Below, one piece after another: positions 1 to 37,811 of a stretch of 64,000 nt of DNA. A program made the translations under genes and the position numbers. The notes under the pieces are model-generated. The model ran no database searches and had not been told where the DNA came from. It saw nothing but the letters and a program-made list of their open reading frames with translations. Within the stretch, counting starts at the first letter, position 1, and each line of letters starts with the position of its first letter. The DNA comes from Bacillota bacterium (GTDB taxonomy: Bacteria > Bacillota > Sulfobacillia > JACIYH01), in contig JBFLXJ010000011.1 of the NCBI GenBank assembly GCA_040757085.1, forward strand, positions 36,086 to 100,085, written 5' to 3'.

Positions 1-121
1 TTTTTGGCGTAGGTGTAGAACCCTTCTTTCCGTTACCGCTGGCAAAGTACCCGGCTGGCGGGAGTGCACGGTGAGCTGCCAGGACCAAATTCATTAGGTT
101 CGGGGAAGGGAGTAGGGCAAC

Positions 122-679: not shown

Positions 680-697
680 CCGGTCGGGCGGCGGGAG

Positions 698-2410: not shown

Positions 2411-2464
2411 GGCCGGCGGCTATAGGGCTGCATTGTACGGGCATATGGCAGGAGGTGTAACATC

Positions 2465-3559: not shown

Positions 3560-3627
3560 GCAGGTGCGCGAGTGTGAGGATTTATGAAACATCGCCCTGG
3601 ACAACCGCACGGGGAGGGAATGTAGCG

Positions 3628-5055: not shown

Positions 5056-5134
5056 GGCGCGCGGCGAAGGTCTGTTGGACTTGTGACCTCCCGGGAATAC
5101 ATCGTCAGGCGTGGGCTGAGAGGAGGCAGGAGTT

Positions 5135-7114
5135 GTGTCTGCCACCAGGTTGCCAAAGTATGAGGATTTGTATGACATCAAAATGGTGTCGGATCCACAG
5201 ATTGACCCTCAGGGCAACTGGGTAGTGTTTACGGTCACAGAGGTAGACAAGGAGTCAGATGGCTACCGTTCTTCGCTGTGGCTTGTCCCCACGCGGGGCG
5301 GGGAACCCCGCCGGCTCACCCACGTGGGCAAGGTTAACATGCAACCCCGGTGGTCGCCGCAGGGAGACAAGCTGGCCTTTATTTCCGATCGCGGGGGCGG
5401 CAATCAGGTTTGGGTGCTACCCTTTTCCGAGGGAGGGGAGGCGTACCCGGTCACTGCGGATCTCAGGGGGATTTCGTCTCCACCCGTGTGGCGCCCTGAT
5501 GGGAAAGCCCTGGCAGTAGTCGCTCTGGGTCCGGCTCAGCCGGGAGAAGATCTGCCCGAGAGATCTGAAATCAAGACGTCGGACCGTTTGCTACACAAGT
5601 TCGACGGGACAGGAGTGTTCGGTCCAGGCAGGCAGCAGGTGTACGTGGTTCCCTCTTCAGGAGGAAAAGCAACTCAGGTAACTTGGGGAGATTGCGATCA
5701 CGGCGTGCCCGCCTGGTCGCCCGACGGTCGCCGGCTGGCCCTGGCCGTCAGGCGTAGCGCTGATGCGGACCACACCGCCCTTAGCGATCTGTATCTGCTG
5801 GATGTCGGCTCGGGCGAATATCAACTCCTGCGTACGAATTTCTCCCGCTTCCTGCTTCCCAGCCCCGTGTGGTCGCCAGACGGAAGTAGGCTGCTAATGG
5901 TGGCCGCAGAGGGCAGGTCCTGGGGGAACCGCACTCCGGAAATATGGTTAGTCGAAGTGGAAAGCGGTCATGCCGAGAGCCTGACGCGCGAATTCGATCG
6001 ACCGCCAGCCCCGGTCGATAGCGGGGACATCGTGACGGTGGATGCCCGTCCTCTGCCGCAGTGGAGCCCGCACGGAGACAGGGTCTTTACCCTCTTCGCT
6101 GAAAGGGGGCAGTGCGAGCTTTATTCCCTCGACTTGCGTACGAGGGATATTGAGCGGCTCTCCAAAGGTCATCGCAGGGTCCTCACGGCCTTTTCCATGG
6201 CTCGCGACGGATCCTTCGCTTACACCGTTACCGATCCTTCCCGGCCCAACGAGGTGTACTACCTCAGTCCCACCGGAGAGGAAAAGAGGCTTACCGACTT
6301 CAACGGGTTCTATTTCGGCGAGATGGCGTTGCGACCGGTAGAGTTGGTCACGTATCAAGGACCTGATGGCCTCCCGCTGGAAGGCTGGCTGATAACCCCC
6401 GGGGGACAGGGGCCTCACCCCCTGATCCTCAGCATCCACGGAGGGCCCCACGGGGCTTACGGGTTTGCCTACCATCACGGGTTCCAGTGCCTGGCGGCCC
6501 AGGGTTACGCCGTGCTCTACACCAACCCCCGCGGCAGCCAGTCATACGGGACTGCCTTCGCCCAAGGTTGCGTGCGGGATTGGGGTGGCAAGGATTTCGG
6601 TGACCTCATGGCTGGCGTGGATGAAGCGGTCAGGCGGGGGGTCGCCGATCCCGATCGGCTGGGAGTGTCGGGATATAGCTACGGCGGCTTCATGACCAAC
6701 TGGATCATAACCCACAGTGCTCGATTCAAGGCTGCGGTCTCGGGCGGGTGCCTTAGCAACCTATTGAGCTTTTACGGCTCGTCCGACCTGGGGTATTTGT
6801 TCCTTCTGGATGAAATCGGAGGGCCTCCTTGGGAAACGGTAGAAGCCCTTCTCCAGCACTCTCCCCTGATGCACGTGGCCAACGTTACCACTCCCGTGCT
6901 CTTCCTGCACGGAGAAGCCGACGACCGTTGCCCCATTGAGCAGGCCGAGCAAATTTACGTGGCGCTCCGGCAACTGGGAAAGCAGGCGCAACTCGTGCGC
7001 TACCCCCAGAGTAGCCATCTGTTCATACTCACCGGCAAGCCGAGCTTCAGGATCGACTACTGGCGGCGCCTCACCGAATGGTTCGACCGGTATCTGAAGG
7101 ACCGGAGCAGCTGA
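5135..7114 (+). CDS. S9 family serine peptidase (acylaminoacyl-peptidase/prolyl oligopeptidase type) with N-terminal beta-propeller
   Basis: WSPDG-type propeller repeats in N-half; C-terminal alpha/beta hydrolase with GYSYGGFM nucleophile motif and HGEADDRCP; GTG start after GAGGAGG. Confidence 0.8.
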   Translation: MSATRLPKYEDLYDIKMVSDPQIDPQGNWVVFTVTEVDKESDGYRSSLWLVPTRGGEPRRLTHVGKVNMQPRWSPQGDKLAFISDRGGGNQVWVLPFSEGGEAYPVTADLRGISSPPVWRPDGKALAVVALGPAQPGEDLPERSEIKTSDRLLHKFDGTGVFGPGRQQVYVVPSSGGKATQVTWGDCDHGVPAWSPDGRRLALAVRRSADADHTALSDLYLLDVGSGEYQLLRTNFSRFLLPSPVWSPDGSRLLMVAAEGRSWGNRTPEIWLVEVESGHAESLTREFDRPPAPVDSGDIVTVDARPLPQWSPHGDRVFTLFAERGQCELYSLDLRTRDIERLSKGHRRVLTAFSMARDGSFAYTVTDPSRPNEVYYLSPTGEEKRLTDFNGFYFGEMALRPVELVTYQGPDGLPLEGWLITPGGQGPHPLILSIHGGPHGAYGFAYHHGFQCLAAQGYAVLYTNPRGSQSYGTAFAQGCVRDWGGKDFGDLMAGVDEAVRRGVADPDRLGVSGYSYGGFMTNWIITHSARFKAAVSGGCLSNLLSFYGSSDLGYLFLLDEIGGPPWETVEALLQHSPLMHVANVTTPVLFLHGEADDRCPIEQAEQIYVALRQLGKQAQLVRYPQSSHLFILTGKPSFRIDYWRRLTEWFDRYLKDRSS

Positions 7115-7274
7115 GACAACACGTAGCATGCCCGCGGTACACCGCAATGCCCTGTGCAACACCCGAGGAGGGAAGCCCTGGAAAGGGGGTGACGGCCGGG
7201 AAACTCTGGGTATTCACTACGGGTCAAGTTGGTTTGTGTGTGCGGGAAGGATGTCAGCTTCAGGAGGTGAGAAG

Positions 7275-8909
7275 ATGAGACGGTGGCGGTACATGGCCAT
7301 TACTTTAGTAGTGGTCCTGGTCGCGACGGTGCTGGTGGGTTGTCGGACGCGGTCAACCGGGGAGGGCGCGAAGGAGCCTGCCCAGGAGGTCAGGCGGGGC
7401 GGGACCGTGGTCATTGGCTACATGGAAGAACCCAACACGCTCGATCCCCACAAGACCGCAGCTGGTGCTGCCTATTTCGTGATGAGTCTTATATCCGATC
7501 CCGTCGTGCAAACCGATCCCCAAACCGGCGACTTCATCCCGCACCTGGCCAAGCGGTGGGAGGTATCCGGGGACGGGCTGGAGGTCACGTTGTACCTGCG
7601 CGATGACGTAAAGTTCCACTCAGGTGTTCCGTTCACCGCGCATGCCCTGAAAGCTACGTGGGACCGAGCCTTTGATCCCAAAACCAAGACCGTCGCAGCT
7701 TCGAAGATGCTCGGGCCGGTGAAGGAAATCATCGCCCTGGACGATTACACCCTCAAATTGCGTATGGAGAAGCCTTTTGGTCCCTTGTTCTACGGCTTGT
7801 CCCTGGGAGGGTATACGCACGCCATCGATCCCACCAACCTGGAGAAGTACGGTGAAGATTATGGCCGGCATCCGGCCAGCACCGGGCCGTACAAGTTCGA
7901 AGAATGGGTGACCGGTCAGTGGATCACGCTGGTGCGAAACGAGGACTACAAGTGGGCACCCAGTTTCGCCTCCAACCAGGGTCCCCCCTATCCCGAAAAG
8001 ATCCAGATCAAATACATCCTCGAGGATGCCACCCGCGTGGCGGCCCTGGAGGCCGGCGAGGTCCATATTGCCCCCGTGCCCCCCATGGAAGTTGACCGGT
8101 TCACGAATAACCCGAACTTCAGCGTGTTCTCCTACCTTGCATCAGGAGTAAGTATGTCCCTGTGGTTTAATCAGAACAAGCCCCCTCTGAACGACGTGCG
8201 GGTCAGGCAGGCCCTCTCTTACGCGATCGACAAGCAGGCCATTATAGAGGGAGCCGCCGCTGGGCACGCCCGCCCGGCCCACGGTCCCCTGCCCCCTACC
8301 ATATGGGGCTACTGGAAGGGCGTAGAGGATATCAGCTACAAATTCGACCCGGAGAAGTCCAAGGCGTTGCTGGAGGAAGCCGGCTGGAAGCTGGCCCCCG
8401 GGGACACGGTTCGAAAGAAGGAGGGTAAGCCCCTCAAGCTGAGCCTCTTCATCATGCCGGCGGATGCGTGGAGGCGCACGGCCGAGCTCCTGCAGGCACA
8501 GTTCCGTGATGTTGGGGTCCAGGTGGAGATCCAGAGCTACGAGTGGGGTGCGCTCATGCAGTACCTCGGCGAAGGGCGCCACCACATGAACCTGATGGGA
8601 TACGGTTACGGTGACCCCGACATCCTGTACCTCGCCCTGCACTCCTCCCAGGCGGGTTCGGGAGTGAACTGGTGTTTCGTGCGCGACCCTGACATCGACG
8701 CTGCTGTTGCGGGTCAGAGGAACACCGTGCTCCCCGAAGAACGCCTCCGCTATGCGGCCGAGGCGCAGCGGTTGGTCGTGGAACGGGCCGTTTGGGCCCC
8801 CATATACATCTCCGAGAATTACGTGGCGGTGAATAAGAAGGTGCAGGGCTTCAAGCTGAACTTCCGGGGGACCTGGCTATTGCATGACATCTGGTTGAAG
8901 GACAACTGA
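7275..8909 (+). CDS. ABC transporter substrate-binding lipoprotein, family 5 (peptide/opine/nickel type)
   Basis: ATG at 7275 with AGGAGGTG RBS; signal peptide plus lipobox (LVATVLVGC); length and motifs of DppA/OppA family. Confidence 0.8.
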   Translation: MRRWRYMAITLVVVLVATVLVGCRTRSTGEGAKEPAQEVRRGGTVVIGYMEEPNTLDPHKTAAGAAYFVMSLISDPVVQTDPQTGDFIPHLAKRWEVSGDGLEVTLYLRDDVKFHSGVPFTAHALKATWDRAFDPKTKTVAASKMLGPVKEIIALDDYTLKLRMEKPFGPLFYGLSLGGYTHAIDPTNLEKYGEDYGRHPASTGPYKFEEWVTGQWITLVRNEDYKWAPSFASNQGPPYPEKIQIKYILEDATRVAALEAGEVHIAPVPPMEVDRFTNNPNFSVFSYLASGVSMSLWFNQNKPPLNDVRVRQALSYAIDKQAIIEGAAAGHARPAHGPLPPTIWGYWKGVEDISYKFDPEKSKALLEEAGWKLAPGDTVRKKEGKPLKLSLFIMPADAWRRTAELLQAQFRDVGVQVEIQSYEWGALMQYLGEGRHHMNLMGYGYGDPDILYLALHSSQAGSGVNWCFVRDPDIDAAVAGQRNTVLPEERLRYAAEAQRLVVERAVWAPIYISENYVAVNKKVQGFKLNFRGTWLLHDIWLKDN

Positions 8910-9001
8910 ACACATACCGGGAGGGATGCGGCCTCCGGGGGCGGGGGATGAGGATCCTCCGCCCCCGGCGGATGCAACCGCAGGGCAGGAGGATCACCTA
9001 A

Positions 9002-9922
9002 ATGTCTACTTACCTTGCCAAGCGGGTTCTGGGAACCATTCCGGTGCTGGTGGGCGTGTCGATACTGGTGTTCTCTATGCTACATTTTGTGCCCGGGGAC
9101 CCGGCACGCATCATGCTGGGCATGGAGGCGGGAGCAGAAGACGTGGCCCGGCTGCGAAAGCAGCTGGGTCTGGATGATCCGTTGGCAGTGCAGTACCTGA
9201 GGTTTGCTGGGGGGGCTCTGCGGGGTGACCTGGGACGTTCCCTGAAGAGCAATCGCCCGGTTGTGGAGGAAATAACGGCGCGGTTCCCTGCCACCTTGAA
9301 ACTGGCATTCTGTAGCCTCAGCATAGCCGTCTCCGTCGGCGTCGTGGCTGGAGTGCTGGCAGCAAAGCACCATCAATCACTGCTGGATAACGCGGTCATG
9401 TTAGGGGCGATAGTGGGGGTCAGCGTCCCCGGTTTCTGGCTCGGACTGATGCTCATCTTCCTTTTTGCGGTCAATCTCCGCTGGTTCCCGGTCGCGGGAG
9501 CCGCGACTCTTCGGCACCTGGTGTTGCCGAGCCTTTCGTTGGGGCTGATGGCGTCCGCAGTTGTGGCGCGCATTACCCGTTCTTCGGTTCTGGAGGTCAT
9601 GCGCCAGGACTACATCCGAACGGCACGTTCGAAGGGCCTATCGGAACGAATCGTCATGTACCGTCACGCGCTCAAGAACGCCCTGATACCCGTGGTCACC
9701 GTCGTGGGATTACAGTTCGGCGGCCTCCTCGGCGGCGCGGTGATTGTCGAGCAGGTGTTCGCCTGGCCTGGCCTGGGGACGTTAGCCGTCACTGCTTTAC
9801 AGGCCCGAGACTTTCCTATGGTGCAGGGCATTGTTCTGTACATGGCGCTGGGATACGTGCTTGTGAACCTGATAGTGGACGTAATGTACAGCTATCTTGA
9901 TCCACGCATCCGTTATCAGTGA
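9002..9922 (+). CDS. ABC transporter permease (DppB/OppB-like)
   Basis: six predicted TM segments, conserved permease EAA-like loop (YIRTARSKGLSERIVMYRHALKNA). Confidence 0.85.
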   Translation: MSTYLAKRVLGTIPVLVGVSILVFSMLHFVPGDPARIMLGMEAGAEDVARLRKQLGLDDPLAVQYLRFAGGALRGDLGRSLKSNRPVVEEITARFPATLKLAFCSLSIAVSVGVVAGVLAAKHHQSLLDNAVMLGAIVGVSVPGFWLGLMLIFLFAVNLRWFPVAGAATLRHLVLPSLSLGLMASAVVARITRSSVLEVMRQDYIRTARSKGLSERIVMYRHALKNALIPVVTVVGLQFGGLLGGAVIVEQVFAWPGLGTLAVTALQARDFPMVQGIVLYMALGYVLVNLIVDVMYSYLDPRIRYQ

Positions 9923-10824
9923 GCTGGGAAGGTGGAACCTTGGCGGTGGTGGTTAAGAGAAAGGATATGCGTCGTGCCACGCCCGACTCGTTTTCGTTCC
10001 GGAAGTACGCCGTGCGCAGGTTCGTTCAGAACCGGGGCGCTGTGCTGGGCTTGTTGCTGTTTGTCTCCCTGATAGTCTCCGCCGTCCTGGCCCCCTGGAT
10101 TGCCCCCTATGACCCATACGAAGTGAGTTCTAACCGTCTCGCTCGTCCCTCGCGGGAGCATCCCCTGGGAACAGATGCGCTGGGAAGGGATGTCCTGAGC
10201 CGGATCCTGTACGGAGGCCGGATTTCCCTGCAGGTGGGAGTGATAGCGGTAGGCATTGCGGCAGTAACTGGGACTGTGCTGGGCCTCATCGCCGGCTACT
10301 TTGAAGGTTGGCTGGACCATGTCATCATGCGCTTGATGGAAGTCATGTTAGCCTTTCCAGGTATACTCCTGGCAATGGCAATTATCGCCGTGCTTGGCTC
10401 CGGCCTGTTCAACGTTATGATCGCGGTGGGCATTGCCTCCGTTCCCTCCTACACCAGACTGGTGCGGGGAGTGACTCTGTCGGTTAAGCAGAACGAATAT
10501 GTGCAGGCTGCTCGCGCGTTGGGTAGCGGGACCGGGCGCATCATGTTGCGCCACCTGGTGCCAAACATTGCTGCCCCCATCGTGGTTCTGTCCACCCTGG
10601 GGGTGGCGAGTGCCATCCTCACCTGTGCGGGGCTGAGTTTCATCGGGTTGGGCGCACCTCCTCCCACTGCGGAGTGGGGTGCCATGCTGGCTGCGGATCG
10701 GGTTTACCTGCGTCGTGCCTGGTGGGTGGTGGCTTTCCCGGGCCTGGCCATTACCATTTCAGTGCTAGCCATCAACCTGTTGGGTGACGGTCTGCGGGAC
10801 GCGCTGGATCCTCGGCTCAAGTGA
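9919..10824 (+). CDS. ABC transporter permease (DppC/OppC-like)
   Basis: GTGA start/stop overlap with upstream permease; DppC-type motif (YVQAARALGSGTGRIMLRHLVPN). Confidence 0.85.
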   Translation: MSWEGGTLAVVVKRKDMRRATPDSFSFRKYAVRRFVQNRGAVLGLLLFVSLIVSAVLAPWIAPYDPYEVSSNRLARPSREHPLGTDALGRDVLSRILYGGRISLQVGVIAVGIAAVTGTVLGLIAGYFEGWLDHVIMRLMEVMLAFPGILLAMAIIAVLGSGLFNVMIAVGIASVPSYTRLVRGVTLSVKQNEYVQAARALGSGTGRIMLRHLVPNIAAPIVVLSTLGVASAILTCAGLSFIGLGAPPPTAEWGAMLAADRVYLRRAWWVVAFPGLAITISVLAINLLGDGLRDALDPRLK

Positions 10825-11078
10825 GACGCCTCGAGGGACTGGGACGAGGGTCCTCCCGCGTAATCTGTTCCGGGTGAGAGGGTGGTTGACCGGGAAAGCA
10901 AGAGGGAAGTGGCCACCGATCCGGGCAACGCCGCCCGCACCGGGTCCAAGAGGCGCTTCCGGGTGATTCTGCGCGTCATCCCCGACGGGGGTCACGCCCT
11001 GACGAGGGCCAGGGGCTTCATCATCGACCGGTTTCTGGGCGAAATACTGGCGGAGCTCGAGGGCGAGGGCGACGGGCG

Positions 11079-12632
11079 TTGCGGGCGGTGATATACGCGC
11101 GCGTCTCCACCGACGAGCAGGCGACCCGGGGCTACTCCTTGGAAGACCAGGTGGAACGGTGCACTGCCCACGCCCGGGAACTGGGGGCAATCCAGATCGA
11201 AATCTTCCGTGATGTGGAATCCGGGAGTGTCCTCACCCGGCCGGGACTGTTGGCCGCACGGGAACGGGTGGCGAGGGGCGGGGTGGAGCTTTTCGTGTGC
11301 TACGACCCGGACCGGCTGGCGCGCAATCTATCCCACCAGCTCCTGCTCACGGAGGAGATCGAGTCACGGGGGACACGGCTGGAATTCGTCAACTTCGCAT
11401 GGAAGAACACCCCCGAGGGGAAGCTCTTTTACTCGCTGCGCGGCGCTATTGCCGAATACGAGAAAGAGAAAATCAGGGAACGGAGCGTGCGCGGCAAGTT
11501 GCGGAAGCTACGGGAGGGTCGGCTTACTCACGACCCGCGCACCTACGGTTACCGGTTTGATCGGGAGCGGGATACGCTGCTGGTGGTCCCCGAGGAGGCG
11601 ACCGTGGTGCGCCGTATCTTTTCCTGGTACGCCGATGAAAACCTGGGTTGCGGCGCCATTGTATCGCGGCTCACTTCCCTCGGCATCCTCCCTCCCCGGG
11701 GGAGAAGCTGGCACCGGTCAACCGTGTCCCGTATCCTGCGTAACCCGGCGTACATCGGTTCCGCCTGCTTTCACCGGTACAACGCCGAGGGCGTGCACGC
11801 CACCAGGAGACTTCCCCCCGGCCAGAGGGTGCTCAGGAAGGAACGACCTCCGGAGGAGTGGGTTGAGGTCCCCGTTCCCGCCATAGTGGACCGGGAACTG
11901 TTCGAGCGCGCGCAGGAGAAACACCGGATGGCGAGACGCCTCTGGGCGGGGAAGTCGAGAACCCAGTATCTCCTGCGGGGCCTGGTGTGGTGCGGGGTAT
12001 GCGGGGGCAGGATCAACGGCAACCTCATCACGTCTAAAGCTAAGAAGCGGAGGTATTATGTGTGCCGGGCCGGAACAGGCCGTACACAAGGAGGCAGGGC
12101 AGGGCCTGCTTGTACGCTGGGGTACGTCCCCGCCGACGACCTGGAACGGGCGGTCTGGTATGTGGTGCTCACCGCACTGTCCGACCCGGACGCCTACCGC
12201 CGTGATCTGCAGGAAAGGACCAGGGAGGCGTGCCTGTATTTGAACACGACCGTTGAGGGCATCCAGGAGCAGATCTCCCGGTGGGCAGAACGTCGTCGCC
12301 GCCTGCTCGAGTTGTACGAGAAGGGAGTGATCCACCTGGGGGAGGTCGAGGAGAGGCTTGCGCAGTTGGGACGTTTGGTGGCCGAGCTGACCCGGCGACG
12401 AGATGACCTCCTCAGGAATGGGCCCCCGGTGGTGGTTCCCACAGATCCGGCCAGGCTGGAGCACGTCGCGGCTAAACTGGTGGAGCGGTTGGGTCGCCTG
12501 GGTTTCGAGGAGCGTCAGACCCTGGTGCGCACGCTGGTTGCCGGGCTCACCGTTCTCCCTGACGCGGTGATCCTGCACGTGCGCTGGCCCGCCGGTGCGG
12601 CAGTCTCGGGGAAAGTTGCCTCGTGCGTATAG
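11079..12632 (+). CDS. large serine recombinase (resolvase catalytic domain + recombinase domain + zinc ribbon/coiled coil)
   Basis: N-terminal AVIYARVSTDEQ catalytic serine motif, CYDPDRLARN, GRLTHDPRTYGYRF recombinase-domain motif, Cys cluster WCGVCGG...YYVCRAG; ~517 aa. Confidence 0.85.
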   Translation: MRAVIYARVSTDEQATRGYSLEDQVERCTAHARELGAIQIEIFRDVESGSVLTRPGLLAARERVARGGVELFVCYDPDRLARNLSHQLLLTEEIESRGTRLEFVNFAWKNTPEGKLFYSLRGAIAEYEKEKIRERSVRGKLRKLREGRLTHDPRTYGYRFDRERDTLLVVPEEATVVRRIFSWYADENLGCGAIVSRLTSLGILPPRGRSWHRSTVSRILRNPAYIGSACFHRYNAEGVHATRRLPPGQRVLRKERPPEEWVEVPVPAIVDRELFERAQEKHRMARRLWAGKSRTQYLLRGLVWCGVCGGRINGNLITSKAKKRRYYVCRAGTGRTQGGRAGPACTLGYVPADDLERAVWYVVLTALSDPDAYRRDLQERTREACLYLNTTVEGIQEQISRWAERRRRLLELYEKGVIHLGEVEERLAQLGRLVAELTRRRDDLLRNGPPVVVPTDPARLEHVAAKLVERLGRLGFEERQTLVRTLVAGLTVLPDAVILHVRWPAGAAVSGKVASCV

Positions 12633-12792
12633 TTCCGGCACCTAAAAGGTGGGGGGCGGGGTTCTCCCTTTGTTGCGACCACGTGCGTGGTGGCGCCCAA
12701 GATCCCGTGCCCGCCCGGGTACCCGCCGCAGTTCCTGTTCCCGACTGTCGGAGTCGGCTAACCAGGACTATTACCCCCACCTGGCGTCATAG

Positions 12793-12813
12793 GGGGAGGG
12801 TGCATCCCTCCCC
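12793..12813. repeat. perfect 8-bp GC inverted repeat GGGGAGGG-TGCAT-CCCTCCCC in intergenic region 3' of recombinase
   Basis: seen directly; followed on + strand by AATCTTTGTCT; could be a terminator or a protein-binding site. Confidence 0.3.
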
Positions 12814-12887
12814 AATCTTTGTCTGGGGGATCGAAGTGAGATGACCAGGCAGAAAGACGGGCAACAACAAGGCCCCAGGCTGGGCCG

Positions 12888-13271
12888 TCAGCGTACGAGA
12901 ACGTGTTCTGCCCCCAGCTGGCGGAGGGCGGTGGTTACCCCCGCCAGCCGTTCTCTTTCCAGGTCCGTGATCACGACCAACATGTGATTCAGCCACTGCC
13001 GTTCCACAGCGGGGAGATCGCCCCCGGGGCGGGCCGACTCCAGGGCATCCCCCGCCTGCGTGGCAGCACGCAGGGCCGGGTTCTCCTTTCCTGCCCGTCC
13101 GGCCACGATGCTCTGTTCCGGCTCGGCCAGAGCGGCCTGGGCATCCAGCCAGCTCTGGGGACCCACCATTTGCACCTTTTCGGAGGGGAGGCCCGCCTGC
13201 ACCAGTTCCTGGCGGGCGAAGCGCGCCTTGTCTTCAGATGGGAAAGCTGCCACCACGGTGGCCATGCGCAA
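12888..13271 (-). CDS. small hypothetical protein, YflT/general-stress-protein-17M-like N-terminus
   Basis: 127 aa; N-terminal pattern TVVAAFPSEDKARFARQELVQAGLPSEKV resembles DUF1269/YflT family; weak. Confidence 0.4.
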   Translation of the reverse strand: MRMATVVAAFPSEDKARFARQELVQAGLPSEKVQMVGPQSWLDAQAALAEPEQSIVAGRAGKENPALRAATQAGDALESARPGGDLPAVERQWLNHMLVVITDLERERLAGVTTALRQLGAEHVLVR

Positions 13272-13553
13272 GCCTCCTTTCCGACCCCCGTGTATTTTCT
13301 CCCGGGGATGTGCAGGGGAATGAGCCCCCGGCCGTGGCGCAGGGCATCAATCTCCACGCAGGGGGATGGGGCCGTGACCGAAGTCGGTGAGGAGCATGTG
13401 GATACCGGTGCGCTCAAGGGGCGGCTTCCATGGACGGGCCAGTGTCCACAAGCGTGTGTCAGGAGCAGGACTTTCCGGCCAGGCGTCGAATACACACACC
13501 ATCGGGCAGCTGGGCTGCCCAGTGTCTGTGCAGTCATGGGCGGGAGTCGAGCG

Positions 13554-14243
13554 ATGTCGTTCCAGAAGGTCAGCCGGTATCGCTTGTACCAGGACGTGGT
13601 AGGACAGCTGGTCGAGCACATAAGGAGCGGCCGGATCCGGCCCGGTGAGCGTTTCCCTTCCGAACGGGAACTGGAGCGGCAGATGGGGGTGAGCCGGGGC
13701 ATCCTGCGGGAAGCGTTCCGGGTGCTGGAGGTTCGGGGCATTATCGAATCCCGGCCCGGGGGCGGTAGGTTTCTCAGGCAGCTTGATGGCCAGAGCCTGT
13801 TCGATCTGGAGGCGGGCTTCGTCAGGCTGGAAAAGGCAGTTTTGCTGGACATTTGCGAGGCTAGACAGATCATCGAGGTTAGGGCGGCCCAGCTGGCGGC
13901 GGAACGGGGCAAGGATGAGGAAATCAGCCACATCGGGAGGGTAATCAACGACTTCTTCAGTACGCAGTTCGATTTGGGAGAGCAGATGGACCGCGACCTG
14001 GACTTTCACGTGGCCGTGGCGCGTTCTACCGGGAATCTGGTGATATGGGAGCTGGTGCGGGTGCTGGTCGGGATCCTGCGGGAACACCGGCAGCAGATGC
14101 ACCTGCCACGCGAAGAATGGGCCACGATGTGCCGCCAGCACTGCCACATCTACGAGGCAATCAGAGGCCGCGACGGCCCGGAAGCAGCCCGGCGCATGGC
14201 GGAACACCTGGATCGGTTGCGGAAAGCGTTACAGGAATCATAG
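13554..14243 (+). CDS. GntR-family transcriptional regulator (FadR/FCD subfamily)
   Basis: winged HTH signature (PSERELERQMGVSRGILREAFRVLEVRGII) plus C-terminal FCD-like helical domain; ATG with GGGAG RBS; six-frame ORF upstream part overlaps antisense and is rejected. Confidence 0.85.
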   Translation: MSFQKVSRYRLYQDVVGQLVEHIRSGRIRPGERFPSERELERQMGVSRGILREAFRVLEVRGIIESRPGGGRFLRQLDGQSLFDLEAGFVRLEKAVLLDICEARQIIEVRAAQLAAERGKDEEISHIGRVINDFFSTQFDLGEQMDRDLDFHVAVARSTGNLVIWELVRVLVGILREHRQQMHLPREEWATMCRQHCHIYEAIRGRDGPEAARRMAEHLDRLRKALQES

Positions 14244-14259
14244 CCGGGAGGCGGTAGCG

Positions 14260-14643
14260 GTGCGGATCAGGGAGCATCCCATCCTGACTTTCCCTGCGCG
14301 CAGGAAGGTGACGTTTTTCTTCGAGGGCCGTCCCCTGGAAGGGTATGAGGGGGAACCGATTGCTGCGGCGCTACACGCGGCCGGAATCCGGGTATTGCGC
14401 GAGAGCCCGGTGCTGGGCCGGCCGCGGGGGTTCTTCTGTGCGGTGGGCAACTGTTCCTCGTGCCTGATGGTGGTGGATGGGGTGCCCAACGTGCGGGTGT
14501 GTGTGGAGAAATTACGGGAAGGAATGCGGGTGGAGCGTCAGGCGGGGAAGGGTAACCTGCTCGCTGCCGTGGGTGGGGGCCGGGCTTCCGGGCTGGACTC
14601 TGGCGCGGCGCTGCACGGGTGTGGGGGTGAGGAGGGTGCTTAA
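14260..14643 (+). CDS. (2Fe-2S)-binding small subunit (HcnA / opine oxidase / sarcosine-oxidase-alpha N-terminal-like)
   Basis: Cys cluster CAVGNCSSCLMVVDGVPNVRVC typical of HcnA-type 2Fe-2S subunits; GTG start after GGGAGG. Confidence 0.7.
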   Translation: MRIREHPILTFPARRKVTFFFEGRPLEGYEGEPIAAALHAAGIRVLRESPVLGRPRGFFCAVGNCSSCLMVVDGVPNVRVCVEKLREGMRVERQAGKGNLLAAVGGGRASGLDSGAALHGCGGEEGA

Positions 14644-14650
14644 CCCCCAG

Positions 14651-15736
14651 GTGATGGTGGTGGGTGCGGGGCCGGCGGGGATGTCGGCGGCCTTGGCGGC
14701 GGCGGAATGGGGAGCCCGGGTTCTTCTGGTGGATTTGTTCTCGGAGCCGGGTGGGCAGCTGGTGAAGCAGACCCACAAGTTCTTTGGGTCCCGGGGGCAG
14801 TATGCGGGCACGCGGGGGATCGAGATTGCCCGCCTGCTGGGGGAGAAGGTGCGGTCTCATCCCGGCATAGATCTGTTGCTGGACACCCAGGTGCTGGGGT
14901 ACTACCCCGACGGGGTGCTCACCATGGAGCGATCGTTCAACGGGGAATCGGAGTACCTGAAGGCGCGTCCGCGCCGGCTGGTGGTGTGCACGGGTGCGCA
15001 GGAGAGGCCGCTTGCTTTTCCCGGCAATGACCTGCCCGGGGTGTACGGGGCGGGGGCGGTGCAGACGCTGATGAACGTGCATGGGGTGAAGCCGGGGCGG
15101 CGGGCGGTGATGGTGGGTGCGGGCAACATTGGTCTCATCATCTCGTATCAGCTTCGCCAGGCGGGCGTGGAGGTAGCCGCGGTGGTGGAAGCTGCTCCCA
15201 CGATCGGGGGGTATGCCGTGCATGCCTCCAAGATCCGCCGGCTGGGGATACCCATCCTGACGTCGCATTCGGTGAAGGAGGCCCGTGGTGAGCGGGAGCT
15301 GGAGGGTGTGACGGTGTGGAGGCTGGACGAGAGGTGGCAGGGTATCCCGGGTACCGAGTGTGACTTCGAGGCGGACGTGCTGTGCCTGGCGGTGGGTTTG
15401 TCGCCCCTGACGGAGCTTCTGTGGCAGGCGGGGTGCCGCATGGTGTACGTGCCCGAGCTGGGTGGTCATGTTCCCTGGCGTGATGAGCACCAGCAGACGT
15501 CGGTGCCGGGGATATTTGTGGCTGGTGATGCCTCCGGGGTGGAGGAGGCGTCGTCGGCCATGGTGTCGGGGCGGATTGCGGGGCTGGCGGCGGCGGCTTC
15601 GCTGGGGTTGTGCCCGTGCTACCGGGAACTGGCCCGGGAGGCACATGCCCAGCTTGAGGTGCTGCGGGCGGGTCCTCCGGGGGAGAAGATTCGCCGGGGT
15701 CTTGCGCGTCTGGGGGAGGTGGCGCGGGCATGCTGA
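14651..15736 (+). CDS. FAD/NAD(P)-binding oxidoreductase subunit (HcnB/OoxA-like alpha subunit)
   Basis: two dinucleotide-binding folds: VVGAGPAGMSAALAAAEWGARVLLVD and AVMVGAGNIGLIISYQLRQAGVEV; start set at GTG 14651 downstream of the upstream gene's stop. Confidence 0.75.
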   Translation: MMVVGAGPAGMSAALAAAEWGARVLLVDLFSEPGGQLVKQTHKFFGSRGQYAGTRGIEIARLLGEKVRSHPGIDLLLDTQVLGYYPDGVLTMERSFNGESEYLKARPRRLVVCTGAQERPLAFPGNDLPGVYGAGAVQTLMNVHGVKPGRRAVMVGAGNIGLIISYQLRQAGVEVAAVVEAAPTIGGYAVHASKIRRLGIPILTSHSVKEARGERELEGVTVWRLDERWQGIPGTECDFEADVLCLAVGLSPLTELLWQAGCRMVYVPELGGHVPWRDEHQQTSVPGIFVAGDASGVEEASSAMVSGRIAGLAAAASLGLCPCYRELAREAHAQLEVLRAGPPGEKIRRGLARLGEVARAC

Positions 15737-16233
15737 GGCAGACGGGGGTGCCCGCGGTGGAAGACCTGGCGCGGGTGATGCCTCCTGAGGAGGTGAGGCG
15801 CCGGGGGCCGGTGGCGATATTCGAGTGTTTTGAGCGGATCCCGTGTGATCCGTGTTACTGGGCGTGCAAGCGGGGTGCGGTGAGGCCGTTTAAGGACATC
15901 AATGATCTTCCCGGTGTTGATTGGGAGAGGTGCAATGGGTGCGGTCTGTGTGTGGCTGCCTGTCCGGGGCTGGCCGTATTCGTGGTGCACGAGGGGTACA
16001 CGGATAGCACGTCGCTGATCAAGTTGCCCTATGAGTTCCTCCCCCTGCCCGAGGTGGGGCAGGTGGTGGAAGCCCTGGACCGCGAGGGGAATTGCGTTGG
16101 TGAGGCGCGGGTGGTGAAGGTGCAGAGGTCGCGGGAGAAGGTGGGCACCCCGGTGCTGTGGATCGAGGTGGAGAGGGACCTGGCCCATGTAGTAAGGAAC
16201 ATTGCCGTGGCCGGGGGTGGGCAAGGTGAGTGA
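15730..16233 (+). CDS. ferredoxin-like Fe-S subunit (Cys-rich)
   Basis: CDPCYWAC...CNGCGLCVAACPGLAV 4Fe-4S-type motif; 7-nt overlap with upstream gene. Confidence 0.55.
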   Translation: MLRQTGVPAVEDLARVMPPEEVRRRGPVAIFECFERIPCDPCYWACKRGAVRPFKDINDLPGVDWERCNGCGLCVAACPGLAVFVVHEGYTDSTSLIKLPYEFLPLPEVGQVVEALDREGNCVGEARVVKVQRSREKVGTPVLWIEVERDLAHVVRNIAVAGGGQGE

Positions 16234-16594
16234 CCGGGATCAGGACGTGGTGATCTGCCGCTGTGAGGATGTCACGTTGGCCGAGATCAGGCGTCTGGTT
16301 GCCGAGGGTGCCTGTACTCTGGATGAGATAAAGAGGCTGACGCGGGCGGGGATGGGTTTGTGTCAGGGGCGTACGTGCCGGCACCTGATCCTGCAGGAGG
16401 TGTCGCGGCTGACCGGGGTGCCGGTGGAGGAGCTGGTGCTGCCCACCTTCCGTCCTCCCACCCGTCCTGTGAAGCTGGGTGTTATCGCGCGCGCGGCGGC
16501 TGCCCATGAGGCCGGCGCCGGGGTGGCTGCCCAGCACGCTGTCGGCGAGGTGCCTGCCTGCCAGGCTCCGGCAGGGGATGGTGGCCATGGTTAA
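16226..16594 (+). CDS. BFD-like (2Fe-2S)-binding domain protein
   Basis: CRCEDVTLAEI...GMGLCQGRTC pattern of BFD-like [2Fe-2S] domain; start uncertain (TTG 16202 / GTG 16226). Confidence 0.55.
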   Translation: MSDRDQDVVICRCEDVTLAEIRRLVAEGACTLDEIKRLTRAGMGLCQGRTCRHLILQEVSRLTGVPVEELVLPTFRPPTRPVKLGVIARAAAAHEAGAGVAAQHAVGEVPACQAPAGDGGHG

Positions 16595-17732
16595 GACGGC
16601 GGATGCGGTGGTGGTGGGTGGGGGGATCCAGGGGGTATCGGTGGCCTACCAGTTAGCGCTGCGGGGCCTGAAGCCGCTTCTGGTGGAGAAGGGGTACCTG
16701 GCCTCCGGGTCCACGGGCCGGTGTGCGGCGGGTGTGCGGCAGCAGTGGGGTACGGAGATGAACATCCGGCTGGCCCGGGCCAGCATCAAGATGTTCGAGC
16801 GGCTTGAGGAGGAGCTGGGTTACGCGCGGGGGATAGAGTTCAAGCAGCGAGGGTATTTGATTCTGGCGTACCAGGAGAGGCAGTGGGAGCAGTTTTTGCG
16901 GAACGTGGCCCTGCAGCGTTCGCTGGGTGTTCCCGTGGAGGTGCTTACGCCCGAGGGGGCGCGGGAGATAGTACCCTACCTGAACCCTGAGGGGGTGGTG
17001 GGTGCCACTTTCTGTCCGGAGGATGGGCATATCAATCCCTTCCGGGCGGTGGAGGCGTATGCGCAGGGGGCCTGCCGGCTGGGGGCAGAGATTTGGACTT
17101 TCACGCGGGTGACGGGGGTCAGGGTGGAAGGTGGGCGGGTGGTGGGGGTGTGCACCACCCGGGGAGAGGTTTCCACTCCGGTGGTGGTGAACACCGCCGG
17201 TCCCTGGTCGGACGAGGTGGCGGAGATGGCGGGTCTTGACATCCCCACCTATGCTCAGCGGCATCAGATTCTGGTCACTGAGCCGGTGGGGCCAATGCAG
17301 GGTCCGATGGTGATTTCCTTCTTCCACGGGCTGTACTGCCAGCAGACGCCGCACGGGAGCTTCATCATGGGGCTGGGGGATCCCCACGAGCCCCGCAACC
17401 TGGACTGCGGGGCCACCTGGCGTTTTCTGGAGGAGATGGCTGGTATCGTTGTGCGCATCCTGCCGCCTCTGGCCCATCTGCGGGTAGTGCGGCAGTGGGC
17501 GGGTTCTTACGACATGACGCCCGATGCCCAGCCCATTGTGGGGCCGGCTCCCGAACTGGAGGGCTACTACTATTCGGTGGGGTTCTCCGGGCACGGCTTT
17601 ATGCTGGCTCCCATGACGGGGAAGCTGCTGGCGCAGATCATCGTGGGCGAAGAGCCGGACATCCCTGTCGACCGGCTGGGTCCGGATCGCTTCGCACGCG
17701 GTGAGTTGATCCTTGAACCCGCGGTGGTGTGA
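16587..17732 (+). CDS. FAD-dependent oxidoreductase, sarcosine-oxidase-beta/HcnC/OoxB-like (beta subunit copy 1)
   Basis: DAVVVGGGIQGVSVAYQLALRG FAD fold, C-terminal GFSGHGFMLAP motif of DAO family. Confidence 0.8.
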   Translation: MVKTADAVVVGGGIQGVSVAYQLALRGLKPLLVEKGYLASGSTGRCAAGVRQQWGTEMNIRLARASIKMFERLEEELGYARGIEFKQRGYLILAYQERQWEQFLRNVALQRSLGVPVEVLTPEGAREIVPYLNPEGVVGATFCPEDGHINPFRAVEAYAQGACRLGAEIWTFTRVTGVRVEGGRVVGVCTTRGEVSTPVVVNTAGPWSDEVAEMAGLDIPTYAQRHQILVTEPVGPMQGPMVISFFHGLYCQQTPHGSFIMGLGDPHEPRNLDCGATWRFLEEMAGIVVRILPPLAHLRVVRQWAGSYDMTPDAQPIVGPAPELEGYYYSVGFSGHGFMLAPMTGKLLAQIIVGEEPDIPVDRLGPDRFARGELILEPAVV

Positions 17733-17808
17733 AGGAGCCCCCGCCGCAGGACGGGCGTGACCCCTGAGGCGGGAGGGAGCCGGGCAGGGCGGAGCGCGGG
17801 GTGGGAGC

Positions 17809-18963
17809 GTGGCAGACCTGATCGAGCGCACAGCCGACGCGGTCATAGTGGGGGGCGGGGTGCACGGGTGTGCGGTTGCCTACCACCTCTGCCGCCGTGG
17901 GCTCAAGGTTTCTCTGTTCGAACGGGGATACCTGGCCAGCGGCGCCACCGGGCGTTCTGCGGCGGGGGTCCGCCACCAGTTCGGCACCGAGATAAACTGC
18001 CGCCTGGCCATCTGGAACATTCGTCTCCTGGAGCACCTGGGGGAGGAACTCGACTACCCGTACGACCTGGAATTCACCCAGGGAGGGTACCTCCTGCTGG
18101 CGTACACACCCGGCCAACTGGAGCAGTTTGCCCGGAATGTGACCCTGCAGCGCAGCCTGGGCATTCCGTCAACCATCCTGTCTCCCGAGGAAGTGGCCCG
18201 GGTCGCACCTGGTCTCAACCTGGACGGGGTTCTGGGAGCCAGTTTCTGCGCGCGGGACGGTCACGTCAACCCCTTCCACCTCACCTGGTCGTACGCCCGG
18301 GCGGCCCGGCGCCTTGGTGCCCGCATTCACTGTTTTTGCCCGGTACATGCCGTGCTCGCCGGTGACTCGCGGGTGCGCGGCGTGCTTACCGGTGCCGGAC
18401 GGGTGGAGGCCCCGGTGGTGGTGATATGTGCGGGGGCGGAAGGAGCGGAACTGGCCCGCGCTCTGGGGCTAGATGTCCCTGTGTATGGTGAGCGGCACCA
18501 GATCCTGGTCACTGAGCCCGTGGCCCACTTCCTCGATCCCATGGTGCTCTGTTTCGAGGACGGCAGTTACTTCAAGCAGACCCCTCACGGCAGCCTGCTC
18601 ATGGGTATCGGAAGCCCCTTCGAGCCCAAAGGGTACGGGCAGGGGTCCAGCTGGCACTTTATGGAGGAGATGGCGTCGCGCATCGTGCGCCACGTTCCTG
18701 CCCTGGCCGGCGTGCGGGTGGTGCGGCAATGGGCCGGCCTCTATGATATCACTCCGGATTCCCAAGCCATCGTGGGGCCTGCCCCCCTGGAAGGGTTGTG
18801 GCTGGACCTGGGCTGGAGCGGCCACGGTCTGCAATTTGCCCCCAGTATCGGCCTCATCCTGAGCCAGCTCATCGTGGGAGAGCCTCCCTTGGTGGATGTC
18901 AGCCCGTTCCGCCTGGGGCGTTTTGCCACCGGCGAACTGGTACCGGAACCGGCCTGTGTGTGA
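17809..18963 (+). CDS. FAD-dependent oxidoreductase, sarcosine-oxidase-beta/HcnC/OoxB-like (beta subunit copy 2, tandem paralog)
   Basis: DAVIVGGGVHGCAVAYHLCRRG; collinear similarity to the upstream 16587-17732 gene (e.g. RHQILVTEPV, VVRQWAG, GWSGHG). Confidence 0.8.
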   Translation: MADLIERTADAVIVGGGVHGCAVAYHLCRRGLKVSLFERGYLASGATGRSAAGVRHQFGTEINCRLAIWNIRLLEHLGEELDYPYDLEFTQGGYLLLAYTPGQLEQFARNVTLQRSLGIPSTILSPEEVARVAPGLNLDGVLGASFCARDGHVNPFHLTWSYARAARRLGARIHCFCPVHAVLAGDSRVRGVLTGAGRVEAPVVVICAGAEGAELARALGLDVPVYGERHQILVTEPVAHFLDPMVLCFEDGSYFKQTPHGSLLMGIGSPFEPKGYGQGSSWHFMEEMASRIVRHVPALAGVRVVRQWAGLYDITPDSQAIVGPAPLEGLWLDLGWSGHGLQFAPSIGLILSQLIVGEPPLVDVSPFRLGRFATGELVPEPACV

Positions 18964-19075
18964 TGCAAGAGGAAGGAGGCGAGAGCGACCCATATTCCGG
19001 TGACTCGTAGCGGCCCCAGAGGCCAGGTCAAAGGCGGTTAGAGTCAAGCTCACCATCAGCCAGGAGGAGAGAACG

Positions 19076-20227
19076 ATGAGAAAAATAATGGTGTGTGTGG
19101 TTGTCCTGGGTCTATTGCTCTCCGTATCCGCTGCCTGCGCCCAGCAACCCAAGGCCAAGCCTACGATCAAAATCGGTTACTTGGCGCCTCTAACGGGTGA
19201 TTGGGCGTTCGAAGGCCAGGAGGGCATAAAGAAGCCACTCGAAATGCTGGTCGAGCAGGTGAACAAGCAAGGCGGGTTGTTGGGAGGCAGGCAGATCGAG
19301 CTTATCTCCGCCGACGATCAGAGTGATGCCAAGCAGGCTGCTCTAGCTGCCCAAAAGCTCATAACAGCCGGTGCGAAAATCGTTATCGGGTCTTACGCTT
19401 CCACGTGTACCGAACCGGCTTCGCAGCTGTTCAACGACGCAGGGATCCTGCACATCACGCCGATATCCACGGCTACACGGCTAACGGAAAAAGGCTACAA
19501 ACGATTCTTCCGTACCTGCGTTACGGACGACAAGCAGGGGCTGTTTGCTGCTGAGTTCATTTCCAAGACGCTGGGCAAGAAGCGGGTAGCCATCATACAC
19601 GACAACACCACGTACGCCAAAGGCCTTGCTGATTGGAGCAAGAAGTACATGGAAGACGCCGGGCTGGAAGTGGTGTTCTTCGATGCAATTACTCCCAAAG
19701 AAAAGGACTACACGGCTGTTCTTACGAGGCTCAAGGCCGCTAAGCCCGAGGTCTGGTACTTTACCGGCTATTACCCAGAAGCTGCTCTACTGGTCAGACA
19801 GGCCGCAGACGTGGGTTTGGATGCGCAGATGATGGTGGGCAATGCAGTTAACAACCCCGAGTTCGTGAAGATGGCGGGAATTGAGTTTGCCAAGCGTGTG
19901 ATCATCACTACCGAGCCGATGCCGAAGGACCTCCCATGGCCGGAGGCCAGGAAGTTCCTGGAAGATTACAAGGCTCGGTATGGCGAATATCCGCGCAGCG
20001 TCTGGGCGCCTTTCACCGCAGATGCTTTCCGCGTAATCGTGGAGGCGATCAACCGCACGAACTCGGACGACCCAGCCAAACTTGCTGAGTACCTGCATAA
20101 TGAGCTTAAGGATTTCCCTGGCATCAGCGGACTGATACCAGGCTTCGATGAAAAGGGCGACCGTAAGGGCACCATCCACATGGCGTATACCGTTAATGAC
20201 CAGGGCGAGTTCGTGCTGTGGAAGTAG
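19076..20227 (+). CDS. ABC transporter substrate-binding protein, branched-chain/hydrophobic amino-acid (LivJ/K) family
   Basis: signal peptide; type-I periplasmic binding fold motifs; AGGAGG RBS. Confidence 0.85.
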   Translation: MRKIMVCVVVLGLLLSVSAACAQQPKAKPTIKIGYLAPLTGDWAFEGQEGIKKPLEMLVEQVNKQGGLLGGRQIELISADDQSDAKQAALAAQKLITAGAKIVIGSYASTCTEPASQLFNDAGILHITPISTATRLTEKGYKRFFRTCVTDDKQGLFAAEFISKTLGKKRVAIIHDNTTYAKGLADWSKKYMEDAGLEVVFFDAITPKEKDYTAVLTRLKAAKPEVWYFTGYYPEAALLVRQAADVGLDAQMMVGNAVNNPEFVKMAGIEFAKRVIITTEPMPKDLPWPEARKFLEDYKARYGEYPRSVWAPFTADAFRVIVEAINRTNSDDPAKLAEYLHNELKDFPGISGLIPGFDEKGDRKGTIHMAYTVNDQGEFVLWK

Positions 20228-20233
20228 CCGTGG

Positions 20234-20266
20234 GGGGGAGGGGCGGTCGAGTACCGCCCTTTCCCC
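20234..20266 (+). promoter_or_regulatory. strong GC stem-loop immediately after the SBP gene stop (possible intra-operon attenuator/partial terminator)
   Basis: GGGGGAGGGGCGGT-CGAGT-ACCGCCCTTTCCCC, ~13 bp stem; no U-tract. Confidence 0.3.
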
Positions 20267-20299
20267 TGTCGATCCTGAAGGGGTAGGGTGGTTCGAGCC

Positions 20300-21301: not shown

Positions 21302-21373
21302 AGCTCCCAGGTGTTGCTGGCTGGGACGCCAGGGGGCTCACTGGGCCTTGTTAGGTGGAGGTAGGCGAGGCGC

Positions 21374-22279: not shown

Positions 22280-22291
22280 GGGGCGGCAGAG

Positions 22292-23278: not shown

Positions 23279-23372
23279 CGGGCTTTCGCCCGATGCTTGC
23301 TGGTGAGTGCTCTGGCGGTGGGGGCTGGGTGCCGCATCCTGGGCCAGTTTCGCAAGGAGCAGGTGGTGACCC

Positions 23373-24861: not shown

Positions 24862-24939
24862 CTGGCCCGAGACCTGCCCGGGGTGGGAACGCGGTCTCGG
24901 GGAAAACGCCCGGTCCCGCCGGGCAAGGAGGTGCTCGCT

Positions 24940-37669: not shown

Positions 37670-37811
37670 ACTCTTATCCAGAGCGGCGGAGGGACTGGCC
37701 CGATGAAGCCCGGCAACCGGTCACGGGGCTAAGGCCGGCGACGGCCCCAGCCCGAGAGCGTGATGACGGTGCCAACTCCTGCGGAACCCCACGGTTCCGA
37801 GAGATGAGAGG
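37670..37811 (+). ncRNA. SAM-I (S-box) riboswitch
   Basis: matches S-box consensus blocks: CTCTTATCcAGAGcGGCGGAGGGACTGGCCCGATGAAGCCCGGCAACC ... GGTGCCAACTCCTGCGG ... GAGAGATGAGAGG. Confidence 0.85.

Follow-up and report, generated by a model that had tools for sequence, protein, structure and literature searches.

A large serine recombinase (LSR) gene in a 64,000-nt stretch of DNA from a Bacillota bacterium (assembly GCA_040757085.1, contig JBFLXJ010000011.1, nt 36,086 to 100,085; the whole stretch is hereafter called the window) marks the right end of a non-phage integrated element of 21,547 bp, the boundary of which lies at nt 12684/12685. Of this architecture there is very little doubt. 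The element divides a gene that resembles those for a family of spore coat proteins, and joining the two parts at the recombination crossover restores one uninterrupted reading frame. It is probably a member of the sporulation gene-intervening elements. The part of this reading that concerns timing, namely that excision would occur as a step of sporulation, is drawn from analogy with known systems and stands about evenly balanced.

Attachment sites and boundaries of the element

The right attachment (att) site, attR (nt 12660-12709, plus strand), consists of a P arm, GGTTCTCCCTTTGTTGCGACCACG (nt 12660-12683), the crossover dinucleotide TG (nt 12684-12685), and a B' arm, CGTGGTGGCGCCCAAGATCCCGTG (nt 12686-12709); the junction in full (nt 12658-12711) reads GGGGTTCTCCCTTTGTTGCGACCACG-TG-CGTGGTGGCGCCCAAGATCCCGTGCC. 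As the LSR stop codon ends at nt 12632, the recombinase gene adjoins the att site. The window begins within the element, 8,862 nt of which lie further to the left, and this part was supplied by NCBI contig JBMONE010000026.1 (assembly GCA_049324795.1, 'MAG: Bacillota bacterium', i.e. a metagenome-assembled genome), reached via the regulator gene at nt 122-679. The contig is 100% identical to the window at nt 1-10679 and 6888-19265, which are all of the stretches compared (window nt 1-19265), and window nt 1-10679 correspond, again with 100% identity, to nt 9880-20558 of the retrieved locus L095. The left site, attL, is at L095:1016, 8.86 kb left of the window start, and reads CGTACGGGTTCTGCGTTCCTGCCGAG-TG-CGTGGTTGCAACAAGAGGAGAAACTG. 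Both attL and attR are present on one public contig. The search of the flanks for attB/attP-like imperfect inverted repeats, which had been advised in an earlier reading of the window made from the letters alone (the sequence-only reading), has thus located both ends.

The P' arm was found by scanning the reverse complement of the P arm over the window and its left extension. This gave one outstanding match, CGTGGTTGCAACAAGAGGAGAAAC, on the expected strand (20/24 positions, against a maximum of 16-18/24 for shuffled sequences). Over the longer span of L095:1018-1043 the P' arm agrees with the reverse-complemented P arm at 20 of 26 positions, and the TG crossover and a CGTGGT core are the same at both junctions. 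The reconstructed attP (…GTTGCGACCACG-TG-CGTGGTTGCAACAAGAGG…) is a near-perfect inverted repeat (20/26), and the reconstructed attB (…GTTCCTGCCGAG-TG-CGTGGTGGCGCCCAAG…) is a weaker one (14/26). An AGAAC-like distal motif occupies positions +19-23 in the P-type arms and +15-19 in the B-type arms, i.e. it lies 4 bp nearer the centre in the latter, and a half-site register difference of this kind is an established pattern of LSR att sites. The sites accordingly have the quasi-palindromic form, the common dinucleotide and the more central B-type motif that characterise LSR-type att sites. When the 3' ends of LSR genes were aligned, the P arm was also found to be colinear with those of loci L091, L003, L092 and L093, with TTTGTnnCGAC… in all. 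Between the two strains available (the window and a variant, L002) the att region and the adjoining gene fragment are identical, with zero differences across nt 12655-12852.

The sequence-only reading had proposed that the LSR sits at an integration boundary of a genomic island, just downstream of the peptide transport (Dpp) genes. The LSR does mark such a boundary, but the boundary lies 3' of the LSR and the Dpp genes are cargo inside the element. Other interpretations of the region were tried and set aside. A minimal element of 2 kb, comprising only the small open reading frame (ORF) upstream of the LSR (orf69, see below), the LSR itself and a downstream hairpin, was rejected because the conserved block to the right of the LSR is the 3' end of the target gene; there is also no P'-like arm or inverted repeat left of orf69. 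Nor is nt 12660-12709 an intact attP, as the spacing in its right arm is that of a B-type site and the real P' arm is located elsewhere. The conserved block 3' of the LSR has no match in Rfam at E<=10, and G+C content, tried as an island marker, was not discriminating.

The interrupted coat-like gene

The gene split by the element has 186 codons, of which 162 (the 5' part, L095:533-1018) lie to the left of attL and the last 24 to the right of attR; attL falls inside ORF L095:533-1084. The 3' fragment (nt 12686-12761, plus strand) comprises the last base of a Cys codon, 24 codons (VVAPKIPCPPGYPPQFLFPTVGVG) and a TAA stop. Joined at the TG, the two parts encode an uninterrupted, in-frame protein of 186 aa that contains 16 Cys residues and ends, before the stop, in VVAPKIPCPPGYPPQFLFPTVGVG. 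A gene divided across the element had been suggested as something to look for, and it was found here, split in frame. The reconstituted protein aligns with positions 1-192 of the 199-position NCBIfam profile NF052457 ('BMQ_0737 family morphogenetic spore coat protein'; E=5e-13, 49.6 bits; the curated cut-off is considered below), while the alignment of the interrupted ORF ends at the junction (residue 161, profile position 176) and scores 44.7 bits. Homology of the split gene to the BMQ_0737 spore-coat family is therefore probable, and a role in sporulation may be supposed. BMQ_0737 itself is an outer-layer spore protein of B. megaterium (PMC4656864).

The 3' end of the same gene adjoins an LSR in another organism. 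In locus L091, an LSR 65% identical to that of the window lies at the same position of the 3' end of this gene, with the frame kept. The block common to the two loci extends for about 150 nt, at about 85% identity, from the attR site to the end of the hairpin, and the sequences diverge just after it. Across the first 17 codons of the 3' fragment they differ by three synonymous changes and one conservative (Tyr/Phe) change, a pattern that indicates either coding constraint or a gene that was recently intact.

The hairpin (nt 12793-12823, plus strand; GGGGAGGG-TGCAT-CCCTCCCC, then AATCTTTGTC) was recognised as intrinsic-terminator-like in a terminator scan. It had been described from the sequence alone as a perfect GC hairpin of 21 bp at nt 12793-12813. 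The structure is real, but it consists of an 8-bp stem (7 G-C pairs) and a 5-nt loop, followed by a T-rich tail. It is situated about 30 nt past the stop of the coat-like gene, and its stem is kept in L091. It is the terminator of the split gene rather than an att feature, and in the integrated state it is also downstream of the LSR.

At its other end, the split gene starts 2-4 nt from, or overlaps (GTGA), the stop codon of a tyrosine recombinase (Phage_integrase) gene, L095:9-530, which lies about 9.4-9.9 kb left of the window. Within the tyrosine recombinase region, the sequence CCGTTAGCA occurs twice as a direct repeat (L095:465-489).

The recombinase and its small partner ORF

The LSR gene (nt 11088-12632, plus strand) is intact and encodes 514 aa from a GTG at nt 11088, or 517 aa from a TTG at nt 11079. 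The catalytic Ser, recombinase domain and zinc ribbon named in the sequence-only reading were confirmed by Pfam domains, all far over their cut-offs (Resolvase, PF00239, E=2.6e-32; Recombinase, PF07508, 4.8e-23; Zn_ribbon_recom, PF13408, 1.1e-12), and by motifs: the catalytic motif VIYARVSTDEQ (R5 and S7 in the 514-aa numbering), a DRLAR motif, and the zinc-ribbon cysteines C302, C305, C326 and C342. The recombinase and zinc-ribbon domains follow the catalytic domain, which is the layout of the LSR family. In the strain variant (L002) the LSR differs by 7 synonymous and 7 non-synonymous changes (98.6% identity) and has no frameshifts or stops. Judged by its sequence, the enzyme appears to be catalytically intact and is putatively active on its att sites. 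Its closest homologues share 54-65% identity. Against the curated LSR families of NCBIfam its scores are well under the cut-offs (CcrB, 96.6 bits vs 900; XisF, 94.8 vs 375), which places it outside CcrA/B/C and XisF. By this comparison, in which SpoIVCA was not included, the enzyme is orthologous to none of the curated LSR families.

The LSR had been described as solitary. The flanking genes are as described, but a conserved 69-aa ORF, orf69 (nt 10882-11091, plus strand), overlaps the LSR start at a GTGA, suggestive of translational coupling. Its core motif is RVxxRV(I/V)xDGGxxLxxxRxF(I/L)(I/V)xR(F/Y)L. An orf69-like ORF precedes every close LSR relative examined (54-65% identity). The more distant LSR of D. 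kuznetsovii has an ORF in the same upstream position, the likeness of which to orf69 is by eye only, a motif search having been negative. A search of 1.84e9 representatives with orf69 recovered its own cluster and only six distant relatives, and a word-based homologue search recovered its own cluster only. As a conserved, tiny protein that would be co-translated with the LSR, orf69 is a candidate recombination directionality factor. The leader, ribosome-binding site and putative promoter of the orf69-LSR operon occupy nt 10825-10881 (plus strand), and when the upstream regions of the window, L091, L003, L005, L092 and L093 were aligned, homology of the recombination module was seen to begin at about nt 10831.

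Relatives of the recombinase and the dual-wield NTPase gene

The nearest homologues of the LSR also look solitary and lie in unrelated neighbourhoods, but a recurrent partner is seen at their 3' ends. In four loci (L003, L004, L005 and L092) the 3' end of the LSR gene adjoins a P-loop gene that is encoded on the other strand and truncated to its 5' part, and in two others (L093 and L094) the LSR abuts the 3' part of the same gene. The P-loop gene is PRK06851, the 'dual-wield NTPase' (dwNTPase), a protein of striking predicted fold and unknown function (bioRxiv 10.1101/2023.02.19.529160). When a 97-aa dwNTPase fragment was searched against databases, the best 120 matches were all 94-170 aa in length, and in 117 of these 120 N-fragment clusters the truncation occurs at DGTAPH|VVDPK, with a median of 9 residues after DGTAPH. 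Such elements divide the dwNTPase gene of very many spore formers, among Clostridia and Peptococcaceae. The arrangement is complete in Desulfofundulus kuznetsovii (L087:10001-16119; Desku_0525), where a single locus carries, in order, the 5' fragment, about 5 kb of cargo, a small ORF, the LSR, and a 3' fragment beginning HVVDPK. This element has a complete attL and attR, and its ends are clearly inverted repeats. No description of dwNTPase-splitting elements was found in the literature searched.

The B' half-sites of the two target genes are colinear and very similar (D. kuznetsovii, CGTGGTTGATCCCAAAAAC; window, CGTGGTGGCGCCCAAGATC; L093, GTGGTCGACCCCAAG), and encode VVDPK versus VVAPK. The likeness between the window and the dwNTPase B' sequence ends after about 22 nt. 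It may be that the subclade of the window and L091 switched to the coat-like gene via this near-identical half-site. The block 3' of the window LSR, which resembles a decayed dwNTPase fragment by eye, was rejected as such, since tblastn, Smith-Waterman comparison with shuffled sequences and a hidden Markov model of the 120 N-fragments were all negative. At the attB core of the dwNTPase site lies a palindromic CACGTG.

A comparison of L092 (nt 5212-6969) and L093 (nt 8374-10807) is informative as to orientation. Their LSRs are 86% identical, yet one abuts the 5' fragment (convergent) and the other the 3' fragment (co-directional), and therefore the element occurs in both orientations relative to the dwNTPase gene. 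The idea that two paralogous LSR types serve the two types of junction was discarded, as LSRs this similar occur at either side.

Several further loci were noted. A second module of small ORF and LSR (P0003, with 57% identity to the LSR of the window) is found in the same MAG (GCA_049324795.1), on contig JBMONE010000032.1 (L003:9816-11900). Next to it is a 5' fragment of the dwNTPase gene, and the 3' fragment is absent within 10 kb. In P. thermopropionicum (L086:10001-20333) the element that follows the dwNTPase 5' fragment (PTH_0726) bears a cargo of defence type, with Piwi/Argonaute, DpnII/MboI-like and HTH-Peptidase_M78 (helix-turn-helix) genes, as well as transposases. D. kuznetsovii has a second, partial dwNTPase 3' fragment (L087:18080-18484; 92-94% identical), which lies a further 2 kb downstream and has duplicated UPF0175 and DUF3368 genes on its flanks. 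Lastly, P0078 (631 aa, from a 2.9-kb Logan contig) is an LSR homologue of 40% identity that is fused in one ORF to Spore_YtfJ (PF09579), and may mark one more place where an LSR element meets a sporulation gene.

We regard it as an attractive possibility, though one falling somewhat short of probable, that the LSR, its coupled small ORF and their relatives constitute a lineage of gene-intervening elements linked to sporulation, widespread in Clostridia-like Bacillota and apparently undescribed.

Cargo, the Dpp operon and the host flank

The right-hand 10.8 kb of cargo occupies nt 1-10824, all on the plus strand, and its genes were assigned by Pfam: an XRE-cupin regulator (nt 122-679), an amidohydrolase (nt 698-2410), an octopine dehydrogenase-like gene (nt 2465-3559), a beta-lactamase-fold gene (nt 3574-5055), an S9 peptidase (nt 5135-7114), a substrate-binding protein of family SBP_bac_5 (nt 7128-8909), dppB (nt 9002-9922) and dppC (nt 9919-10824, full length). 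In the part left of the window there follow, from left to right, a sensor kinase with hydrogenase-like and PAS domains, a sigma-54 activator, and NuoF-like, [FeFe]-hydrogenase and NuoE-like genes. The cargo genes called belong to metabolic, regulatory and transport families, and no phage, transfer or conjugation genes were detected in the element by Pfam (PHROGs was not used).

The peptide transporter upstream of the LSR, with a substrate-binding protein and two permeases, is as the sequence-only reading described it, including the lack of an ATPase. No DppD/F-type ATPase is encoded in the 64 kb, in which the only ATP-binding cassette (ABC) ATPases are LivG/F at nt 23373-24861. This absence had been taken as the sign of a junction, an interpretation that does not survive comparison. 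Among 78 loci of DppC homologues with enough downstream sequence, an ATPase gene directly follows dppC in 44 and is lacking there in 34. The three closest operons (L045, L052 and L058; DppB and DppC 57-59% identical) have the order SBP-DppB-DppC without an ATPase, within ±10 kb for L045 and L052, and as far as the sequence extends (about 300 bp after dppC) for L058. Because the closest homologous operons also lack the ATPase and dppC is of full length, the absence is not a scar. By this comparison the missing ATPase genes are normal for this Dpp subfamily, and mark neither a truncation nor a junction.

To the right of the terminator, orf127 (nt 12888-13271, minus strand; 127 aa), previously likened to a small stress protein, matches no family. 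The next gene is a GntR regulator, as had been stated, of the GntR/FCD type (nt 13545-14243, plus strand), and heads an opine/sarcosine-oxidase-like and Liv-type transport cluster. This flank (nt 12888-14243) is not common to L091. The host flank at nt 13545-25938 as a whole is a catabolic cluster for opines, hydroxyproline and amino acids, functionally akin to the octopine dehydrogenase, peptidase and Dpp cargo of the element. It contains the GntR/FCD gene, heterotetrameric sarcosine/opine-oxidase-like subunits, two DAO genes, the Liv-type transporter, a proline-racemase-family gene and an ornithine cyclodeaminase. The G+C content falls to 0.55-0.60 at nt 19000-23000 of the window (Liv-type binding protein, racemase and permease genes), below that of the element itself. 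A SAM (S-box) riboswitch at nt 37671-37810 (plus strand; 84.5 bits) is the only Rfam match at the gathering threshold in the window.

Further downstream are yqfD (PF06898; nt 50734-51915, E=1.3e-84) and a YqfC-like ORF (nt 50439-50717). The host is therefore an endospore former, as had been proposed from the same two genes.

Proposed excision during sporulation and its alternatives

In the mechanism considered here, LSR dimers would occupy attL and attR at their P-type and B-type half-sites, with the co-translated 69-aa protein acting as the putative directionality factor. Cleavage at the common TG dinucleotide, followed by rejoining, would release a 21.5-kb circle carrying attP and rebuild the coat-like gene. 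By analogy with skin/SpoIVCA, SPbeta/SprA-SprB and gin/GirC-GirX, this would take place in the terminally differentiated mother cell, while the forespore, and with it the germ line, would keep the element.

A number of observations weigh against this reading. The 49.6-bit score of the reconstituted protein is below the curated NF052457 cut-off of 71 bits, and the protein has no match in Pfam. No promoter of the coat-like gene's own is visible, and this gene may itself lie in or beside another element. A promoter scan upstream of orf69-LSR found no sigma-70-like site, and no sporulation-type promoter could be called there. orf69 has no match in Pfam, NCBIfam or PDB, and no likeness to SprB or any other known directionality factor. 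The G+C content of the element (0.634) is not clearly different from that of its flanks (0.64-0.66). Finally, neither an empty site (attB) nor an excised circle (attP) was found. Comparison with related genomes for the empty site had been recommended, and it brought none to light: a look-up with orf127 gave four right-flank contigs, all of them occupied; a scan of GTDB representatives with DppC gave nothing closer than 57%, there being no close relative among the GTDB species representatives; and a metagenome scan with the LSR gave one distant locus only.

Several of these points would suit an ordinary integrative genomic island that is occasionally excised for transfer or loss, without any developmental programme, and that has simply inactivated the coat gene. 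Such an island would be expected to have the same architecture, no recognisable sigma-E or sigma-K promoter was found, and the target family match is under its cut-off. The cargo, however, lacks the transfer or phage functions by which a free circle could persist. Moreover, the 24-codon 3' fragment is in frame and apparently constrained as coding sequence in two lineages with LSRs of only 65% identity, the whole LSR clade is found inside genes of spore formers at fixed positions, as are the known sporulation intervening elements, and the host is itself a spore former. A plain island thus seems unlikely, although it deserves serious consideration. It is improbable that the element is an immobilised relic, with a dead recombination system and the island fixed in the chromosome. 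Every strain and contig seen has the site occupied, the 7 non-synonymous versus 7 synonymous changes in the LSR between the two strains imply weak constraint, and the conserved motif upstream of orf69 differs in the window from that of its relatives. The LSR, orf69 and both att sites are nevertheless intact, with P/P' agreement of 20/26 and the same core and crossover, neither frameshifts nor stops occur, and nt 12655-12852 are identical between the two strains.

A junction of another kind, between dppC and the genes that follow, at which the DppD/F ATPase genes would have been lost through insertion or deletion, has very little to recommend it. It would account for the lack of such an ATPase in the window, given that 44 of the 78 homologous operons have one directly after dppC, but no att half-site occurs between dppC and orf69, no second P-like arm is present in the window, and the real junctions are at nt 12684 and 8.86 kb left of the window; dppC is also of full length and the closest operons have no ATPase. 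Membership of the sporulation gene-intervening elements is the explanation favoured here.

Significance

The element adds a BMQ_0737-like outer-coat target and an uncultured lineage of high G+C content to the short list of sporulation gene-intervening elements, and would be the second clear non-phage case after gin. Its purely metabolic cargo raises the question of whether such elements are kept because they are harmlessly removed in the mother cell only. The dwNTPase gene is a very common insertion site of the same recombinase family, which provides a testable link between the dwNTPase family and sporulation. If excision proves to be specific to the mother cell, it would follow that the dwNTPase gene belongs to the mother-cell sporulation genes, that the small ORF represents a new family of directionality factors co-translated with the integrase, and that metabolic islands, in this case the clusters for [FeFe]-hydrogenase and for peptide catabolism, are lost from the chromosome of the mother cell late in sporulation. 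As the att sites are fully defined (attB, attP and the TG crossover), the LSR and orf69 can be tested directly as a pair of integrase and directionality factor.

Comparison with known systems

The LSR of the window shares its domain architecture with the large serine integrases of phages (Bxb1, phiC31, A118/LI, TP901-1), which likewise use dyad-symmetric att sites, a 2-bp crossover, and attP half-sites longer than those of attB. Unlike these, it has no phage context, and its similarity to them is confined to the catalytic domain. The dwNTPase-splitting elements are much closer, as their LSRs belong to the same clade (54-57% identity; 42% for D. kuznetsovii). At 54-57% identity the LSR is accompanied by the same small coupled ORF, and the P arm is homologous; in D. 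kuznetsovii an ORF occupies the corresponding position and the P arm is more loosely similar. In all of these elements the target gene differs from that of the window.

The class of sporulation gene-intervening elements (skin, SPbeta, vfbin, vrin, gin) is characterised by interruption of a coding region and restoration of the ORF by precise excision, and the sequence of the window element and its target shows this same arrangement. With skin/SpoIVCA (sigK; B. subtilis and C. difficile) as with SPbeta/SprA-SprB (spsM), the gene broken up by the LSR-bounded element acts in the mother cell and serves the spore envelope or late regulation (PMC4191935, PMC5499854, PMC5025042); precise excision restores the ORF, and a small, separately encoded factor sets directionality. 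Unlike the window element, skin and SPbeta are prophages or prophage remnants. The LSR SprA (YokA) is distant, with a PDB match of E=1.4e-11 over residues 122-310 of the window LSR, and the label 'SpoIVCA-type', offered as one possibility in the sequence-only reading, would apply as an analogy of mechanism only.

Among the known intervening elements, the closest to the one described here is the non-phage element gin, which interrupts gerE in Bacillus cereus ATCC 10987 and encodes the LSR GirC and a 42-aa directionality factor, GirX (PMC5595907). Each has a length of about 20-30 kb, is not of phage type and divides a small gene of late sporulation (in the case of the window, by predicted function), and both have an LSR, an attL and attR with a short common core, and a tiny accessory protein without recognisable motifs. 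They differ in target, gerE as opposed to a BMQ_0737-like coat gene, and in the number of LSRs, three in gin and one here. In the window element the small ORF is coupled directly upstream of the LSR and the cargo is metabolic (hydrogenase, peptidases and Dpp permease genes). Its host is an uncultured member of the Bacillota of about 65% G+C, in which the element is known from sequence alone.

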